A DNA stretch of 64,000 nucleotides from Kiritimatiellia bacterium (GTDB taxonomy: Bacteria; Verrucomicrobiota; Kiritimatiellia; JAAZAB01): assembly GCA_040767085.1 (NCBI GenBank), contig JAXGPF010000012.1, forward strand, positions 96,001 to 160,000, written 5' to 3'. Positions within the stretch are counted from its first letter, which is position 1. Every line of letters begins with the position of its first letter. A program made the position numbers and the translations under genes. Positions 15,817-43,382 of this stretch are shown here, piece by piece. The notes below the pieces were generated by a model, which ran no database searches, was not told the DNA's origin, and was given only the letters and a program-made list of their open reading frames with translations.

Positions 15817-16611
15817 ATGCGTAATCTGCACAAATATGAAGAGTTGTTTCCGGATGAATTCGCCGCGGAAGTCAAGCGCAAGCCGATCGTTTATTGTTCA
15901 TTTGGGCCGGTGGAATATCACGGCCCGCATGGCGCGCTCGGCATGGATTACCTGAAAGGTTACGAAATCTGCCTGCGCGCGGTGGAAATATCCGGCGGCA
16001 TCGTTTATCCGTTGCTGCCGATCGCGCCCGGCGGCAATCCATTGATGAGCCGGGATGAATTACGCGCGATCGCGAAAATAGCGTACCCCGGCGTGTTTAC
16101 CAGCGCCGAGTTGTGCGAAAAACTATACGCGGAGCTTTTTGAAACTTTTGCCGAGGATATCGGATTCAAGGTCTGTGTCGTCATGGGATCGCATGGGCCG
16201 GCCGGAATTCTGGCGAAAAAAATCGCCGCGGAAAATCCGTCGTTGAAGGGCATGAAAATCATCGCGGCGGGCAGTTTGTCGCACAACCTGGATTTGGTCA
16301 AGGCCGAATATGCGCGCCTGGGCATCCAGCGCATCAGCCATGGCGGCATGTGGGAATCCGCCATGCTGATGGTCAGCAATCCGGAACTGGTTGATCCGGA
16401 AAAATTAAAGACGGTGCCGCCCGGCCCGGCCGAGGAATATTCGGATAAAAAATACGGACCGCACACGCGGCCGGATTACGAGGAAATATCCAAGGTGTCG
16501 CGGGAATTTGGCGAGCGTCTGATCCAGACCGCGGCGGAAAGAATCGCCGCCGCGGCCCTGGCGGCGCTGGAACAGACCTGGCGGGCCACGGGTCAGGCGC
16601 CCCGCTTGTAG
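15817..16611 (+). CDS. Creatininase family amidohydrolase
   Basis: G.VEYHGPH...G.D, GSHG, HGGMWES metal-binding motifs; AAGGAG RBS. Confidence 0.85.
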   Translation: MRNLHKYEELFPDEFAAEVKRKPIVYCSFGPVEYHGPHGALGMDYLKGYEICLRAVEISGGIVYPLLPIAPGGNPLMSRDELRAIAKIAYPGVFTSAELCEKLYAELFETFAEDIGFKVCVVMGSHGPAGILAKKIAAENPSLKGMKIIAAGSLSHNLDLVKAEYARLGIQRISHGGMWESAMLMVSNPELVDPEKLKTVPPGPAEEYSDKKYGPHTRPDYEEISKVSREFGERLIQTAAERIAAAALAALEQTWRATGQAPRL

Positions 16612-17489: not shown

Positions 17490-17589
17490 GAGTTGCGCGC
17501 GGAAGGTGAATGAGCGGCACGGTAGATGTTTCAGCCGCGCCAGTCAAAACAAATTTTCAGGCGGTAGCATCCCCAGGGAAACCGCTTTA

Positions 17590-17812
17590 TGCTCTCACAA
17601 AGCCGTAAAAAAGATGCGGATAATTACCACGGAACCTTTTTTATCCACAGATTACACAGATTTTCGGCCGCAAAGAAGATGGGAATTGTTTACCACAGAG
17701 ACGGATGAGCCGATGGAGGGATTAGCCACCCGCCTTCGCTCGGATGCTATGGCGGACACAGCCTGCCTTCGCAAAAGCTACGGCGGGCAAGCATAGGCAC
17801 AGAAAAGAGCAT
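17590..17812 (+). repeat. Cluster of stacked repeat arms and two ~30-nt hairpin repeats
   Basis: CTCACAAAG, ACCACGGA, CCACAGATTACACAGAT, ACCACAGAGACGGATGAG; CCCGCCTTCGCTCGGATGCTATGGCGGACA and CCTGCCTTCGCAAAAGCTACGGCGGGCAAG. Confidence 0.6.
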
Positions 17813-18341
17813 AGTTGTAATGGAATTGACTGGGATGCCGCGCTGTCCGCCAGGCGGACAGGGATCGGTTGACACGCTGATACGCGAATCAATTCGGTTA
17901 TCAGCGCGGCAGCCGATCCGTCAGACCGGCAGATGCCGGTCCGGCGCGGCAATTGGCAATAAATCTAATGATTTTGCGTATTTTGTGGCTAAACTTACTC
18001 TGCTTTGTGTTCCCGGCAAAGACGATGCTATTGCCAGAAAACCGGAACTTGAAATTAATGCAATCTCCAATTTTCTTAACGAATATTGATGTTTTCGGGT
18101 GATAAATTATATCTGGGTGACGACAGTGAAAAAATTATTAAAAAATGGTCAGAACGTCCATTGCCAATCCGGCGGAACAAGTATATCATTCGCTTTTTAA
18201 AAATTTGCCAGCGGTGTGATCCACAAGCGACATGGAATTTGCGCATATGCAAAAATTCATCCTGCGTTATGATGCCGGGCGGGTGCGGGTAACCAACCGC
18301 CGAATGGAAATGGTGGCGCAGGGGAAAAATCCCGACCGCGT

Positions 18342-32411: not shown

Positions 32412-34022
32412 ATGCGCAACCAAATTGAAGAAAATGCCTTGTTTTTAGGCCTGGATGCCAGCACCCAGAGTTTGAAACTGCTGTTGATCAACCGGCGGTT
32501 GGAACCCGTGGCGGACGCCGCGGTTAACTTCGACGAGTCCCTGCCGGAATTCCAAACCGAGCATGGCGCGCACCAGCACGCGGATGGGCTCACCGTCACG
32601 GCCCCGCCGCTGATGTGGGCGGCGGCGCTGGAACTGGCCCTGGATAAATTGCGGCGGGCGGGAGCGCCATTGGACCGCGTGGCCGCCCTGTCGGGTTCCG
32701 GCCAGCAGCATGGCAGCGTCTGGCTGCGCCGGGGCGCCGGCGCGGTTTTGAATAATCTTGATCCTGCGCGGCCTTTGCGCGGACAAGTGGCGGAGATTTT
32801 CGCCCTGACGGAGTCGCCCATCTGGATGGACGCCAGCACCGCCGCCCAATGCGCCGCGCTGGAGCGCGCACTGGGCGGACCCCAGGCGCTGGCGGACTTG
32901 ACGGGATCGCGCGCTTATGCGCGTTTCACCGGCAACCAGATTGCCAAAATTCATGCCTTCAACCGCGCGGCGTACGAGGCTGCGGAACGGATTGCGCTGG
33001 TAAGTTCGTTCATGGCTTCCCTGCTGATTGGCGGATATGCGCCGATCGATTTCAGCGATGGCTCGGGAATGAACCTGCTGGATATCCGCGCCCGGCGCTG
33101 GGCGCCCGCGGCGCTGGCGGCCTGCGGCGATGCGCGCCTGGCGGAGATGCTGGGCGTGCCGGCGCCCGCGCATGCGCCGGCCGGCGTTTTGCATCCTTAT
33201 TTCGCGCAACGCTTCGGTTTCCGGCCGGATTGCCTTGTGATTAATTTTTCCGGCGACAATCCCTGCAGCCTCGCCGGCTTGCGCGTGCAGCAGCCCGGCG
33301 CCGTCGCCCTCAGCCTGGGCACCAGCGATACCTTGTTCGGTTCCACCGTCCGGCCGGCGCCCTCCGGCGCGGAAGGGCATGTGTTCGTCAGCCCGGTGGA
33401 TCCCGGCGCCTGGATGGTCATGCTGGTGCGCAAAAACGGTTCGCTCATGCGCGAGCATGTCCGGGACTTTTGCGCCGGCCGCTCCTGGGAGAAATTTAAC
33501 GCCTGCCTGCAAACCACCCCGCCCGGCAACCTGGGCCGGCTGGGATTTTATCACCTGTCCCCGGAAATTACCCCGCCTGCCGATCGTACGGGTGTTTTCC
33601 GGTTCGATGCGCAGGATCATCCTGTGCCGGCGTTGCCGCCCGCGGCGGATTGCCGGGGTGTGGTGGAAAGCCAGTTTTTGTGCTTGCGGGCGCACGCCGC
33701 CGCCATCGGATTGACGCCCGCCAGCCTGCTGGTCACCGGGGGGGCATCTGTCAATCGCCCGCTCGTGCAGGTCGCCGCCGATGTGTTCGGGACGCCCGTG
33801 CTGGCCGGCGCCCAGCCGGAGTCCGCGGCGCTGGGCGCCGCTTACCGCGCATTGCACGGCTGGCTGTGCCGGCAGCGCGGCGCATTTTTATCGTTTGACG
33901 AGGCCGTGCGCGGCGCGCCGGAATTTCAGGTCGTGGCGCGCCCGGATCCGGCGGCCGGCGCGGTTTACCGGGATTTGTTGCCGCGGTATATCAAGTTGGA
34001 AAAAAGTTTGTTCTCAACCTGA
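32412..34022 (+). CDS. Xylulokinase, eukaryote-like (XYLB/Xks1) branch of FGGY kinases
   Basis: LGLDASTQSLK, SGSGQQHGSV, SPIWMDAST, TGSRAYARFTGNQI, ERIALVSSFMASL, SDGSGMNL, GDNP.SL, SLGTSDT, TGGAS.N. Confidence 0.85.
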   Translation: MRNQIEENALFLGLDASTQSLKLLLINRRLEPVADAAVNFDESLPEFQTEHGAHQHADGLTVTAPPLMWAAALELALDKLRRAGAPLDRVAALSGSGQQHGSVWLRRGAGAVLNNLDPARPLRGQVAEIFALTESPIWMDASTAAQCAALERALGGPQALADLTGSRAYARFTGNQIAKIHAFNRAAYEAAERIALVSSFMASLLIGGYAPIDFSDGSGMNLLDIRARRWAPAALAACGDARLAEMLGVPAPAHAPAGVLHPYFAQRFGFRPDCLVINFSGDNPCSLAGLRVQQPGAVALSLGTSDTLFGSTVRPAPSGAEGHVFVSPVDPGAWMVMLVRKNGSLMREHVRDFCAGRSWEKFNACLQTTPPGNLGRLGFYHLSPEITPPADRTGVFRFDAQDHPVPALPPAADCRGVVESQFLCLRAHAAAIGLTPASLLVTGGASVNRPLVQVAADVFGTPVLAGAQPESAALGAAYRALHGWLCRQRGAFLSFDEAVRGAPEFQVVARPDPAAGAVYRDLLPRYIKLEKSLFST

Positions 34023-34031
34023 CAAGGATTG

Positions 34032-34354
34032 TTTACCACGGATGTCACGGGTAGCACGGATATGAGAGCTTCATATCGTCCATGTTATTAGTGTCATCAG
34101 TGGTTAAATCATCTGAATGGCAGAAAAAATTTACCACGGATGTCACGGGTAGCATGGATATGAAAGATTTATATCATCCGTGTTATTGGTGTTATCAGTG
34201 GTTAAATCATCTGAATGGCAGAAAAAATTTACCACGGATGTCACGGGTAGCACGGATATGAAAGATTTATATCATCCGTGTTATTGGTGTTATCCGTGGT
34301 TAAATCATCTGAATGGCAGAAAAATTTATTACGGATGTCACGGGTAGCACGGAT
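34032..34354 (+). repeat. Tandem array of three 98-bp hairpin units plus a fourth left arm
   Basis: Left arms start at 34035, 34133, 34231, 34328; right arms at 34078, 34176, 34274. Confidence 0.95.
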
Positions 34355-34726
34355 ATGAAAGATTTATTACACGAAACGTTGAGTGAGCACATTATCGGCG
34401 CAGCTATGACTGTATTGAATGAATTAAAGCCAGGGCTGGATGAAAAGCTCTATGAAAAAACTCTGGTCATAGAATTGTTGGAACTTGGACATTCGGTCAA
34501 TCAACAGAAGGTTTTCACGGTGGAGTATAAGGGGCGTGAAATTGGCAGGCTGATTCCCGACTTGATTGTTGACGACCTTGTCATCGCCGATACGAAAGTC
34601 GTGTCAGCGTTCAACGAAACACACTGGGCGCAAATGATAGGTTACTTGGCGTTGACGGGAATGCGGCTAGCCTTGCTGCTGAACTTTAAATACGCTAAAC
34701 TGCAGTGGAAGAGGGTGGTGAGATAA
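34355..34726 (+). CDS. GxxExxY protein (PD-(D/E)XK-like family, function unknown)
   Basis: IIGAAM.V..EL.PGLDEKLYE, YKG..IG...PDLIV, K.V, AQM.GYL, LLLNF; alternative in-frame ATG at 34313. Confidence 0.93.
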   Translation: MKDLLHETLSEHIIGAAMTVLNELKPGLDEKLYEKTLVIELLELGHSVNQQKVFTVEYKGREIGRLIPDLIVDDLVIADTKVVSAFNETHWAQMIGYLALTGMRLALLLNFKYAKLQWKRVVR

Positions 34727-34764
34727 TACAGCTATAGCGAGAATATGTTCAGGCTTTTTATGTC

Positions 34765-34867
34765 ATCCGTGTTATCGGCGTCATCCGTGGTTAAAATATC
34801 TGAATAGCACCTTATAAAGAATATTTATATCATCCGTGTTATTAGTGTCATCCGTGGTTAAATCATC
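34765..34867 (+). repeat. Two right-arm copies of the 98-bp element downstream of the GxxExxY gene
   Basis: ATCCGTGTTATCGGCGTCATCCGTGGT (34765-34791) and ATCCGTGTTATTAGTGTCATCCGTGGT (34832-34858), each followed by the TAAA..ATC tail. Confidence 0.92.
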
Positions 34868-34917
34868 CGCCGGTTTTGCGTGGCGGAAGGAAATGGCGGA
34901 AAACAGACAGGGAAAAC

Positions 34918-35841
34918 ATGCAAATCGAAAAAATCAGCTTCAATGGCTGGCGTAATTGTATCCGGCTGCGCAATGCGGACATGGAACTGGTGATTACCAC
35001 CGATGTCGGGCCGCGCGTCATCCGCTGCGGCTTCATCGGCCAGCCTAACCTCTTCGCGGAAATTGCCGGCCAGCAGGGCGGCGCCGGCGAGCCGGAATGG
35101 AAAATCCGCGGCGGCCATCGCCTGTGGATCGCGCCGGAAGACAAGACTATTTCTTACGAACTGGACAATGTCCCGGTGTCCTGGCGGACGGTGGATGGCG
35201 CCGTGCTGCTCGACCAGCCCCCGGGGCCGGCCAGTAAAATCAGCAAGCATCTGGCGATCCGGTTGGACGATCGGCGGAACCAGGCGCGCGTCCGGCATAT
35301 CCTGCGCAACCGCGGGGACGCCCCGTGCCGGGCGGCGCCCTGGGCTTTGACCGTCATGCCGCCGGGCGCCCGGTTGATTGTTCCGTTGCCCCCTAAGGAA
35401 ACGCATGGCCGGGACAACCGCTTCGAGCCCAACCAGATCTGGAGCATCTGGCCCTGCACCGACCTGGCGGATGGCCGCTGGCAATTCGGTTCGCGCTACC
35501 TGTTCTTCCAGCAGCGGACGGACCGTGATGCCGGCAAGCTCGGCATGTCGCTGCGCGAAGGCTGGGTGGCCGGCCAGTTGCCGGGCGGCGTCTTTGTCAA
35601 GCGTTTCGACTGGCTGCCCGGCGCGGTTTATCCGGATGGCAATGTCAATTTTGAAACCTTCGCCAACCGCGAGATTCTGGAAATTGAAACCCTGGGGCCG
35701 CTGGTGGAATTGGCGCCGGGCGCCGAAGTCGTCCATGAGGAGACCTGGGAACTGCTGACGCCGCTGCCGCCATTGCAGACGGAGAAGGACGTGACCCGGC
35801 ATTTGCGGCCGTTGGTGGCGCAGTCCGCCACGAACGCTTAA
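34918..35841 (+). CDS. Conserved hypothetical protein (DUF4380/galactose mutarotase-like beta-sandwich)
   Basis: GPRVI, GGHRLW.APE, YPD, E.ETLGPL motifs. Confidence 0.6.
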   Translation: MQIEKISFNGWRNCIRLRNADMELVITTDVGPRVIRCGFIGQPNLFAEIAGQQGGAGEPEWKIRGGHRLWIAPEDKTISYELDNVPVSWRTVDGAVLLDQPPGPASKISKHLAIRLDDRRNQARVRHILRNRGDAPCRAAPWALTVMPPGARLIVPLPPKETHGRDNRFEPNQIWSIWPCTDLADGRWQFGSRYLFFQQRTDRDAGKLGMSLREGWVAGQLPGGVFVKRFDWLPGAVYPDGNVNFETFANREILEIETLGPLVELAPGAEVVHEETWELLTPLPPLQTEKDVTRHLRPLVAQSATNA

Positions 35842-41722: not shown

Positions 41723-41789
41723 GCGGGAAGGCCCTTTCGTTGAAAGAGGGTTCACACGGAGTGGAGAGAATCCAGAATAAAGAAATTTA

Positions 41790-41936
41790 TCACACAAAGG
41801 CGCGAAGCCACGAAGTAAGAATAAACGAGAAAACATGACTGTGTTATTCCGTGATATTTAAACCGTTGCTCCTTTGTGGCTTTGCCCCTTTTTGTGTTTC
41901 ACATAACCTTTCGCTCCTGCCACGCAAGGTGGCAGG
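41790..41936. repeat. Inverted-repeat element with periodic arms, plus CCTGCCAC-GTGGCAGG hairpin
   Basis: CACACAAAGGCGCGAAGCCACGAAG ... CTTTGTGGCTTTGCCCCTTTTTGTG; hairpin at 41916-41936. Confidence 0.55.
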
Positions 41937-41951: not shown

Positions 41952-43382
41952 TTAACTCATAAGAAAACATGCCAAGCCCTGCAAATGCGCCAGTTTTTGC
42001 ACCCGCGCGCTATGGCGCCCGGGGAGCGCGATCAGGTGGTGCGGTCCGCCCGCCAGGCTGTAGCGGTTGAGGAAGGCCCCGGCCGGCTCATCGAGCTGCA
42101 CCATCCAGTGGGGAATATCCAATCCCGGCAAGGGCTCAATATCGGCGACTTGCGTTTCATAGGTCACGTACTGCAGGACGTTCCCCGGGCCGGCAGTCAG
42201 GGCGGTCAGCGTCACCGGGCCGGGTTCCAGCGTGAACCACATGCCGGCGTAAGGCTGGATGCCGGGCGCCCAGAAATCTTTTTTCACCAGCCGGATTTTG
42301 CGGTCGCGGCGCGCCAGGGCGGGATTGCATTCCTGCATATGGGTCATCAGCAGGCGGTTGCGCCGGTAATCAATGGTGTAGATTTCGGTGAAATTCGCCG
42401 CGCCGGCCAGCGTCCGCAGCAGCGCCATCTGCGCGGCGCGCAGCACATCGCCTTCGCCGGCGTAGCCCAGCCCTTCGGCGATCAGTTTATTGATGCCGGT
42501 GAACGGCAGCGTTCCGATGCCGGGCTGGTCAAGCAAATCCAGGAAATTCATCGTGAAGGCGTCCAGGCGATGATCGGCGACCACCCGGCGCAAGGCGGCT
42601 TCCAGCCGGGCGGAAAGGCGGTGGATCGGCGGGATGACTTCGGGGGCAATTTCAAAGCGATCATGGTCGCGGGCGATCATCCGGTCAATCTCCGGTTCGG
42701 GAACGGCATTTTTCACGGCGATAAAGTCCGGGATGGACAGCGGCACAACCTGGAAGCCCAGAATTTTTTCCAACGCCGCGGCATCATACTGAAAATCATC
42801 CATCCCGGCAAACGGGCGACCCAGCAGCCCGACGCGCCTGATGCGCCCGTGTTGGCAGGCGCGGGCAGCCTGCAGCCATTCCGCCAGCCGCGCCAGCGCC
42901 GCCTGGTCGCGATAATGGCCGGACTCCATCCCGAAGATTTTGCCGTCGCGCAGGAGCACGCTGGTCAGGTCCTGGGTGCCCTGGGTGACGTGGTTCATCA
43001 GGAGATCGTCAAAATCGTAGGATGCGGCGATGGTTTCCGCTTCCTGGGTATTCCAGATGATCAGCGGCAGGCTGGTACGCCGCAGAATGGGCGCGATCAC
43101 GCCGCTGCAGGCGTATGATAGCGGAATCAGCAGGATGGCATCGGCCTGGTTTTTCTCCGCGGCGGCGACTTGCGCCTCCGCCTGGTCTGCTGTGAAGCAC
43201 AAATCGGCGGATACGCAGGCGATGCCGGCGTGTTCCTGGATGGCGGAGCAGAACCGGCCGAGTTGCGCGCGCAGCCGATCCATGTAGCCCGGAAATTTCC
43301 GGCTGTAAAGTTCCAGCGTGAATCCGATAACCGCCGCTTTGGGCGGGAGCGCGGGGTTGAGAGTTGACGGTGTGGTGTTCAT
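41952..43382 (-). CDS. L-arabinose isomerase-like sugar isomerase (AraA/FucI family)
   Basis: GYAGEGD, FTE.Y, HMQE, GGPHH metal-site motifs. Confidence 0.8.
   Translation of the reverse strand: MNTTPSTLNPALPPKAAVIGFTLELYSRKFPGYMDRLRAQLGRFCSAIQEHAGIACVSADLCFTADQAEAQVAAAEKNQADAILLIPLSYACSGVIAPILRRTSLPLIIWNTQEAETIAASYDFDDLLMNHVTQGTQDLTSVLLRDGKIFGMESGHYRDQAALARLAEWLQAARACQHGRIRRVGLLGRPFAGMDDFQYDAAALEKILGFQVVPLSIPDFIAVKNAVPEPEIDRMIARDHDRFEIAPEVIPPIHRLSARLEAALRRVVADHRLDAFTMNFLDLLDQPGIGTLPFTGINKLIAEGLGYAGEGDVLRAAQMALLRTLAGAANFTEIYTIDYRRNRLLMTHMQECNPALARRDRKIRLVKKDFWAPGIQPYAGMWFTLEPGPVTLTALTAGPGNVLQYVTYETQVADIEPLPGLDIPHWMVQLDEPAGAFLNRYSLAGGPHHLIALPGRHSARVQKLAHLQGLACFLMS

Follow-up and report, generated by a model that had tools for sequence, protein, structure and literature searches.

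What kind of element places a small nuclease gene between inverted repeat arrays and sets three copies of the same frame, emptied of the gene, directly in front of it? This question is raised by a stretch of 64,000 nucleotides (nt) from a Kiritimatiellia bacterium (assembly GCA_040767085.1, contig JAXGPF010000012.1, positions 96,001 to 160,000 of the forward strand), which we call the window and number from its first letter. An island at window positions 34023-34917 holds a GxxExxY gene that is framed by inverted arrays of 9-mers and preceded by tandem gene-less units of 98 base pairs (bp). An earlier note, made from the sequence without database searches, had taken the island for an autonomous mobile element with internally deleted, amplified derivatives. 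We tentatively favour, with confidence that falls a little short of even, a related reading in which the island is a selfish promoter-less cassette whose nuclease would read its own heptamer arrays and whose 98-bp units would be internally deleted and tandemly amplified derivatives. This reading is preferred because the motif class of the arrays is specific to the gene family, their cores are conserved, arrays and gene are linked, sites turn over and array abundance is associated with presence of the gene. In the proposed mechanism a gene of ~370 bp, encoding a minimal PD-(D/E)XK nuclease of the GxxExxY family and framed by inverted 9-mer arrays, would sit between co-directional host genes and be transcribed by read-through from the upstream one, and its product would presumably recognize the heptamer arrays of its own frame. 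The 98-bp units would have lost the open reading frame (ORF) by a deletion between ORF nt 9-13 and the TTTAT before a right arm, and would then have been multiplied in tandem via unequal recombination or slippage between arms. More generally, breaks or recombination at the arrays may copy the cassette, for example into gene-less arrays, and may also delete it, amplify it or leave solitary arms behind.

The island and its nuclease gene

Tandem Repeats Finder reports one tandem array at 34032-34367 (period 98, 3.4 copies, 94% matches, score 588), and a direct reading of the sequence gives its units the layout that the earlier note had described: TTT, a 27-nt left arm (ACCACGGAT GTCACGGGT AGCACGGAT), a 16-nt loop, a 27-nt right arm (ATCCGTGTT ATTGGTGTT ATCCGTGGT) and a 25-nt tail. 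Each arm of the island consists of three tandem 9-mers, in each of which the 7-nt core CACGGAT is joined to a spacer of 2 nt. Complementarity between the arms is 70-80%, the right arms form a repeat family (D1) of five copies, and the three gene-less units are 91-98% identical. Folded as single-stranded DNA, the hairpin of unit 3 reaches -17.3 kcal/mol on the plus strand (z -5.4, with 0 of 200 shuffles as good) and -16.5 on the minus strand (z -6.1), and the folds of unit 1 (z -3.6) and unit 2 (z -2.6) are weaker. An Rfam search of 33800-35000 gave no family at threshold, and at E up to 1 it returned only far sub-threshold look-alikes of microRNA and small nucleolar RNA hairpins.

The loop of the empty units connects them to the gene-bearing frame. 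It reads ATGAAAGATTTATATC, which is ORF nt 1-13 followed by ATC, and its 3' half, TTTATATC, is an exact match to the bases that precede the second of two right arms downstream of the gene. The bases that precede the first right arm, TTTATGTC (34757-34764), are not the same. The earlier claim that the loop joins the start of the ORF to the 3' flank via a TTTAT microhomology therefore stands, but the flank concerned is TTTATATC and not TTTATGTC as had been quoted; similarly, the right arm that had been placed after the gene at 34765 is present but is not the sole one. Because the beginning of the ORF and the 3' flank are both retained, the empty units are best read as internal-deletion derivatives of the gene-bearing frame. 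The array itself is unlikely to be an assembly artefact because its units differ from each other, a contig of an independent digester run is identical over 34304-34927, and a landfill run has two variant unit contigs at raised depth. These comparisons are with contigs and not with reads, none of the contigs spans the array, and the copy number of the units rests on one assembly. As also noted earlier, the island is AT-rich and lies between two host genes: its G+C content is 42%, against 62% for the window and 65-67% for the flanks. The stop codon of the upstream sugar kinase gene is 12 nt ahead of the first left arm, and the kinase, GxxExxY and DUF4380 genes are co-directional.

The predicted product of the ORF is, by sequence comparison, a bona fide member of the GxxExxY/PDDEXK_3 family, and the PD-(D/E)XK-like assignment made in the earlier note is borne out by full-length matches far above cut-offs to TIGR04256 (E 7.7e-35, 119.8 bits with a cut-off of 35, positions 2-116 of 116) and PF13366 (PDDEXK_3; E 7.8e-32, 110.5 bits with a cut-off of 22). 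The motif that names the family reads G27-L-D-E30-K-L-Y33, and the catalytic set comprises E30, D69, D79-T-K81, Q93 and Y97; among 84 aligned members E30, D69, K81, Q93 and Y97 do not vary, and position 79 is occupied by D or E in the 7 members displayed. An AlphaFold2 model with a predicted local distance difference test score of 95.8 shows the alpha-beta-beta-beta-alpha-beta core of PD-(D/E)XK nucleases, and the nearest solved structures are all nucleases of this fold, headed by Cas4 SSO0001 (Z 9.8, root-mean-square deviation 3.2, 98 aligned) and followed by 3ijm (Z 7.7), Hjc 1gef (Z 7.6) and the lambda-exonuclease-like LHK-Exo (Z 7.4), in a list that reaches down to Z ~6 with Hjc, EcoRV and lambda-exonuclease-like proteins. 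In the PDB neither the single protein nor an 84-row profile found a relative by sequence, a PHROGs search with the protein gave no match, and PADLOC returned only a marginal match to a Cas4-like nuclease (E 0.0014). A homodimer prediction with two copies scored 0.00 and 0.00, which counts neither for nor against a dimer. The protein shares the minimal core E, D, (D/E)xK and QxxxY with Cas4/RecB-type and Hjc-type nucleases, and differs in having neither an iron-sulphur cluster domain nor partner genes. The function of the family was listed as unknown in a 2012 survey of the superfamily (PMC3424549). Comparison of six orthologues from different genera gives a proportion of nonsynonymous differences (pN) of 0.08-0.16 and of synonymous differences (pS) of 0.65-0.87, the latter being saturated, with a ratio of the corresponding rates (dN/dS) of 0.04-0.07 where computable. 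Judged by these values the protein is under strong purifying selection and therefore does something that matters to selection. Coordinates of the features are collected in Table 1.

Table 1. Features of the island and of the host genes on either side of it, in window positions
Feature	Position	Strand	Remarks
FGGY-family sugar kinase gene (xylulokinase-like), upstream host gene	32412..34022	+	PF00370 + PF02782 match; start coordinate chosen by analyst
Gene-less unit 1, most decayed	34032..34129	+	left arm 34035-34061, loop 34062-34077, right arm 34078-34104, tail 34105-34129
Gene-less unit 2	34130..34227	+	left arm 34133-34159, loop ATGAAAGATTTATATC 34160-34175, right arm 34176-34202, tail
Gene-less unit 3, best kept	34228..34324	+	left arm 34231-34257, loop 34258-34273, right arm 34274-34300, tail
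Left arm of gene-bearing unit, ATTACGGAT GTCACGGGT AGCACGGAT	34328..34354	+	abuts ATG; repeat family D3, inverted pairs I1, I2
GxxExxY / PDDEXK_3 gene, 123 amino acids, catalytic set intact	34355..34726	+	TIGR04256, PF13366
Right arm 1, ATCCGTGTT ATCGGCGTC ATCCGTGGT	34765..34791	+	D1, I2, I3; unit-like tail 34792-34809 after
TTTATATC then right arm 2 (34832-34858)	34824..34858	+	D1, I1, I4; TTTATATC = 34824-34831
DUF4380 / TTE1925-type mutarotase relative, downstream host gene	34918..35841	+	PF14315 match

The two host genes match more specific models below their cut-offs, the kinase scoring 149 bits for TIGR01312 (XylB; cut-off 380) and the downstream gene 252 bits for NF052227 (cut-off 550).

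Inverted arrays around GxxExxY genes elsewhere

The inverted-array frame is a general, family-specific feature of GxxExxY genes. The genome to which the window belongs (4.08 Mb in 28 contigs) has four GxxExxY loci, all of them framed by inverted 9-mer arrays and each with a different word: CACGGAT in the window, CACGAAG on contig C2, CACGAAG/CACAAAG on C11 and CGCAGAT on C22. Several arms stand in tandem at three of these four loci. For a wider sample we took 80 GxxExxY loci from one-genome-per-species contigs of Verrucomicrobiota, Planctomycetota, Bacteroidota, Chloroflexota, Acidobacteriota, Proteobacteria and other phyla, aligned the 110 nt upstream of each start codon against the reverse-complemented 160 nt that follow each stop, and used 294 flanks displaced by 700-1000 nt as controls. 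The inverted-repeat score, a test of the kind that the earlier note had proposed, exceeded the 95th percentile of the controls in 53 of 79 scorable loci (medians 32 vs 16). Across the sample the arms are built of words in tandem, 8-11 nt long and mostly 9 nt, with a common core of C[AG]CN[AG]A[GT] and an outer end of ACC[AG]C / G[CT]GGT. A strict arm of three CRCNRAK words lies at most 170 nt from 57 of the 80 GxxExxY loci, compared with 6 of 147 displaced controls and 1 of 30 loci of four-helix-bundle genes (TIGR02436). The arms also have polarity, with 46 left against 18 right arms upstream of the gene and 54 right against 13 left arms downstream, and arrays of multiple arms occur at 7 of the 80 loci.

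The type of arm goes with the gene that it frames. When arms are sorted into classes that end in GAT, GAG or AAG, the class changes 12 times on the protein tree, compared with a mean of 31 and a minimum of 24 in 300 shuffles of the labels; outside the close clade of the window the comparison is 10 to 17. Because kin share labels, such tracking of the protein tree shows linkage rather than co-evolution of arms and protein. The heptamer cores, which like the protein are under strong selection, are kept across a divergence at which synonymous sites are saturated, and the spacers vary from element to element within a clade. Of 87 elements, 29 have strict arms on both sides, and in these the left and right cores of one element are 95% identical, which is partly due to construction of the pattern, and the freely varying spacers of 1-3 nt are 73% identical. 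Complementarity of the arms, or their homogenisation, is thus maintained while synonymous sites are randomised. Mismatches between the arms of 52 elements comprise 64 that are sense-compatible, 59 that are antisense-compatible and 189 transversions, and with modest power there is no wobble bias on the sense strand (64 vs 59). Because the mismatches have no preference for sense-strand wobble pairs, they speak for a strand-symmetric constraint at the DNA level, or for concerted evolution, rather than for a selected RNA stem on the sense strand.

The frame also has a preferred orientation relative to host genes. By a simple symmetric ORF caller, upstream neighbours read in the direction of the GxxExxY gene at 60 of 64 callable loci and downstream ones at 55 of 70, and there are 45 (+,+) pairs of neighbours vs 1 (-,-) pair. 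In the window, no sigma-70-like site was found on the plus strand in 33900-35000. Metatranscriptome contigs from two runs cover the kinase gene and unit 1 only (34032-34153), the latter not being proof of transcription, and stretches without such cover are uninformative. Because the upstream gene is co-directional, the plus strand has no sigma-70-like site and the start codon abuts an arm, the cassette probably behaves as a promoter-less insert that is read from the upstream host gene. An intrinsic terminator was considered and dropped, as the only look-alikes are two weak ones on the minus strand within left arms, and on the plus strand none follows the hairpins.

Gene-less arms, site turnover and competing explanations

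Arms without a gene are common in this genome and in its class. With periods of 8-10, the generic class of arm occurs 106 times in the window genome, against 6 for a reversed-pattern control, and counts by word are 39 for CACGAAG, 23 for CACAAAG, 16 for CGCAGAT and 7 for CACGGAT. The 39 CACGAAG arms, of the type shared with the C2 cassette, are spread over many intergenic regions, where they are mostly solitary or in mosaics. Gene-less arms lie between ordinary genes, as is seen beside MatE, an ArnA-like gene, a U32 peptidase and a lipoate ligase. Additionally, C22:119000-135000 is a restriction/defence-like island (T5orf172 plus ResIII helicase, a Bro-N protein, an Eco57I-type methylase) with CGCAGAT hairpins between its genes and a frameshifted GxxExxY cassette between two methylase-like ORFs; an integron-like array was among the readings considered for it. 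In 121 genomes of the class the period-9 pattern gives 1459 matches vs 18 (analyst's count) for the reversed control, and GxxExxY genes, which form a large family, are found in 90 of these genomes with up to 12 matches per genome. Counting arm copies against gene presence, as the earlier note had proposed, yields an association: 61 of the 90 gene-bearing genomes have at least five arms, compared with 7 of the 31 that lack the gene (medians 8.5 vs 1), the p-values being inflated by relatedness of the genomes. The window itself has a gene-less hairpin of another arm family at 41783-41895, composed of CACAAAG GCGCGAAG CCACGAAG, a 55-nt loop and CCTTTGTGGCTTTGCCCCTTTTTGTG, which is intergenic and stands before a gene starting at 41969. 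A copy of a non-coding composite repeat of ~350 nt, without a long ORF, is found at window 17580-17880, and this repeat also lies between CACAAAG arms at C8:24127, C26:10119 and C2:9616 of the same genome.

The proposal of the earlier note that the empty units are internally deleted derivatives gains from several parallels (genomes and contigs that must be told apart carry our own handles, G and C with a number). A cassette on G008:C14 has an in-gene deletion, and a 5' ORF stub in G001 is a further deletion parallel. In G039 (C5:87050-87900) at least three units in tandem come after a GxxExxY gene, each made of the last ~30 nt of the gene plus a gene-less hairpin, which is an independent parallel to the window array on the 3' side of the gene. 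A landfill contig joins 34066 to 34765 and thereby represents a gene-less hairpin allele of the window locus (one contig, 30 nt on its short side, depth 6). Relatives also have hairpins of the CACGGAT type with loops of 30-150 nt, plus solitary arms. In G022 two GxxExxY matches with identical scores lie 541 nt apart (C21:15618-15965 and 16159-16506), perhaps as a tandem duplication of the whole gene-bearing unit.

Cassettes are found at different places in different genera, and their sites differ among congeners. Searching with 3 kb around the island recovered the gene together with its arms, at 74-80% identity, from four other genera of the class sample (G008, G023, G020, G029), each time between different genes, with flanking host-gene matches at ~65-69% identity. 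All three sites that hold an intact cassette in the window genome (G000) are occupied, reduced to a remnant or empty among four congeners (G001-G004). The window site, where the earlier note had suggested looking for empty sites in relatives, is indeed polymorphic: G001 has an 8-nt spacer, G002 has the 3' end of a cassette at a contig start, and in G003 the kinase is joined straight to a partial right arm that is a copy of right arm 2. At the C2 site only the outermost GTGGTGAAT is left in G002 and G003, and G001 still shows a left arm and ~25 nt from the start of the ORF, together with foreign repeats and what remains of a right arm. The C11 site is occupied by a cassette of 92% identity in G002, by one arm remnant in G004 and by a 10-nt spacer in G001. 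The congeners are only 70-90% identical, and recent events could escape this comparison of filled and empty sites. When C2:8000-25000 is compared with G001-G003, the content of intergenic modules is nearly all different between conserved housekeeping genes.

A number of observations weigh against the selfish-cassette reading, at least in the form of a simple transposase-like role for the nuclease. The defined ends and target-site duplications of cut-and-paste transposons and miniature inverted-repeat transposable elements (MITEs) were not seen when the three sites in four congeners and four intergenic clusters were aligned; "empty" sites retain 7-30 nt of the outer end of the right arm, and the four intergenic repeat clusters are almost wholly different between conserved genes in two to four congeners. 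The filled/empty pattern agrees with recombination or deletion no less than with transposition. The CACGGAT arms are not dispersed in the window genome, as 6 of 7 are at the window locus, and there are arm-rich genomes without a detectable gene (29 arms in G017 and 39 in G104). In G042 the only dispersed copies that are 99% identical are truncated cassettes bounded by a different, 18-bp outer inverted repeat (TAACCTGGATTATTCACC...), which lies 60-110 nt outside the arms, and ending in TA; these remnants, each present at 2-3 loci, may have moved as passengers of another, MITE-like miniature element. Finally, four-helix-bundle genes (TIGR02436) of the class sample have an inverted repeat-array frame above the control 95th percentile at 25 of 30 loci, with words of their own (such as TCAGAAG, GAGACTG and GGTTTTAAGG) that are also mixed with CACGAAG arms in intergenic repeat clusters of the window genome. 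Two unrelated small-protein families therefore sit between inverted repeat arrays, each with its own word class, and since the second is not a nuclease family, nuclease chemistry is not required for such a lifestyle. One four-helix-bundle gene of the window genome (C23:84290-84601) is preceded by four units in tandem and followed by a long array of 8-mers.

The main rival to this reading, with which it is not mutually exclusive, is a frame that acts in RNA in the manner of the intervening sequences (IVSs) of 23S ribosomal RNA (rRNA), an analogy that we hold to be unlikely yet worth serious weight. The arms would pair in the read-through transcript as a stem of ~27 bp and a cut by RNase III would release or silence the cassette mRNA while sparing the host operon, with the protein having a role in repair, defence or another process unrelated to the arms. 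Such a view would account for the co-directional upstream genes, for the missing promoter-like site on the plus strand, for a start codon so close to the arm that the stem would bury the ribosome site, and for the maintained complementarity that is evident even in the spacers of single elements. It also has a precedent in the Coxiella burnetii IVS, which passages of PMC4990558 describe as 428 nt long with an S23p ORF, a 28-bp terminal stem that is cut by RNase III and a G+C content lower than that of the genome, and the S23p/four-helix-bundle family has the same kind of repeat-array frame outside rRNA. However, the arm mismatches are without sense-strand wobble bias, many arms are solitary, and a stem needs neither tandem words, nor conserved heptamer cores, nor a motif class private to one gene family.

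We consider it rather improbable that the cassette has no mobility of its own and was spread by horizontal transfer, by general or illegitimate recombination at repeats and by rides in other transposons, with a nuclease that is otherwise useful to the cell or to itself. The G042 remnants, the missing target duplications and the C22 cassettes among defence-like genes are what such passengers would leave, but the window island has no outer repeat of the G042 kind around it, the motif class is specific to the gene family and arm abundance goes with gene presence. Another proposal is that the arrays are sites of a chromosomal regulator or nucleoid protein (IHF/HU-like) that enclose the gene incidentally, as passages of PMC2700814 propose for paired tandem repeats of Geobacter metallireducens. 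While this would suit the gene-less arms between ordinary genes, it has little to recommend it given that the four cassettes of one genome differ in their words, that words travel with the gene across genera, that sites come and go among congeners and that the island is AT-rich, foreign-looking DNA. Finally, the tandem units could be an assembly artefact or a local duplication without meaning, which is hardly credible: short-read contigs of other runs do break at the array, but the units differ by point changes, their sequence recurs in independent runs, and arrays of multiple arms recur at other loci of this genome, in the 80-locus sample and in G039.

An extension of the selfish-cassette reading goes further and is, in our view, doubtful. 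GxxExxY cassettes would form a class of mobile DNA in which cutting of the arrays drives homing-like, break-induced copying into gene-less arrays and sheds hairpin and single-arm relics in intergenic regions over more than ten phyla. A single superfamily would then comprise them and the four-helix-bundle (IVS/Avd-like) cassettes, and the intervening sequences of rRNA would be a special case of it that landed in rRNA.

Relation to known elements and consequences

We group the cassette with selfish hairpin-framed elements such as IVSs and REPIN/RAYT systems. Like ORF-carrying IVSs of 23S rRNA, it has a single small ORF in the loop between terminal inverted repeats of ~27-28 nt, a G+C content below that of the host and a sporadic, horizontally acquired distribution of a kind regarded as selfish, and the protein family of the IVSs (TIGR02436) is the one that also has inverted array frames outside rRNA in the class sample. 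In contrast to IVSs, the cassette lies between protein-coding genes (sugar kinase and DUF4380) and not in a 23S rRNA helix, its ORF encodes a PD-(D/E)XK nuclease and not an S23p/four-helix bundle, and its arms consist of heptamer words, in tandem, from a class that is specific to the gene family. This comparison is made at the DNA level; RNase III processing is described for the Coxiella IVS.

REP/REPIN elements are said to come with a RAYT transposase, as Bertels and Rainey reportedly described in 2011. The cassette resembles them in that a gene is flanked by inverted short repeats that also occur gene-less as hairpin-forming intergenic doublets and singlets, and in that abundance of the repeat goes with presence of the gene. 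To this extent the analogy with RAYT/REPIN drawn in the earlier note holds. Against a simple form of it stand the missing target-site duplications and clean ends, the arm-rich genomes that have no gene, the outer repeat of the G042 copies and the similar frames of four-helix-bundle genes, and the arm type of the island is amplified locally in tandem and not dispersed. The enzyme also differs, since the cassette gene matches PD-(D/E)XK families only and not the HUH Y1 (IS200/IS605-like) transposases to which RAYT belongs. Unlike REPIN/RAYT systems, one genome has several gene variants each with its own word, and the arms are arrays of tandem words.

Repeats of similar build have been reported from Geobacter metallireducens, where passages of Aklujkar et al. 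(2009, PMC2700814) describe 21 sites at which sets of three tandem repeats (TCTCCGTS[Y]) are paired across opposite strands with variable spacing, alongside further classes. As far as these passages go, classes 1-3 have three to five tandem 7-9-mers, paired on opposite strands and in many intergenic copies, like the arms of the cassette; the sites are interpreted as regulator (IHF/HU) sites, and the main-text passages make no link to GxxExxY. From this partial view the Geobacter paired repeats are probably the same kind of repeat as the cassette arms, and a regulator-site reading fits poorly with turnover and horizontal movement. In the searchable literature, which leaves subscription journals and supplementary files outside, we found no link of GxxExxY/PDDEXK_3 or four-helix-bundle genes to flanking repeat arrays, and GxxExxY/PDDEXK_3 is named there only in passing.

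The window adds an unusually clear case in which tandem internally deleted derivatives stand beside an intact gene, and the flanking heptamer arrays offer a specific candidate DNA partner for a nuclease family of unknown function. If the selfish-cassette reading is true, it would explain a large share of the short intergenic repeats in Verrucomicrobiota, Planctomycetota, Bacteroidota, Acidobacteriota and others, would lead to a new reading of the "global regulator sites" of Geobacter, and would place the rRNA intervening sequences in a wider family. There are practical consequences as well: because of the arrays, N-terminal extensions are mis-annotated, contigs break and host genes end at altered stop codons. 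For example, the kinase of G003 ends in an arm remnant: at the C108 junction its last five codons plus stop are taken from the remnant of the right arm, giving SVICG* for SLFST*.

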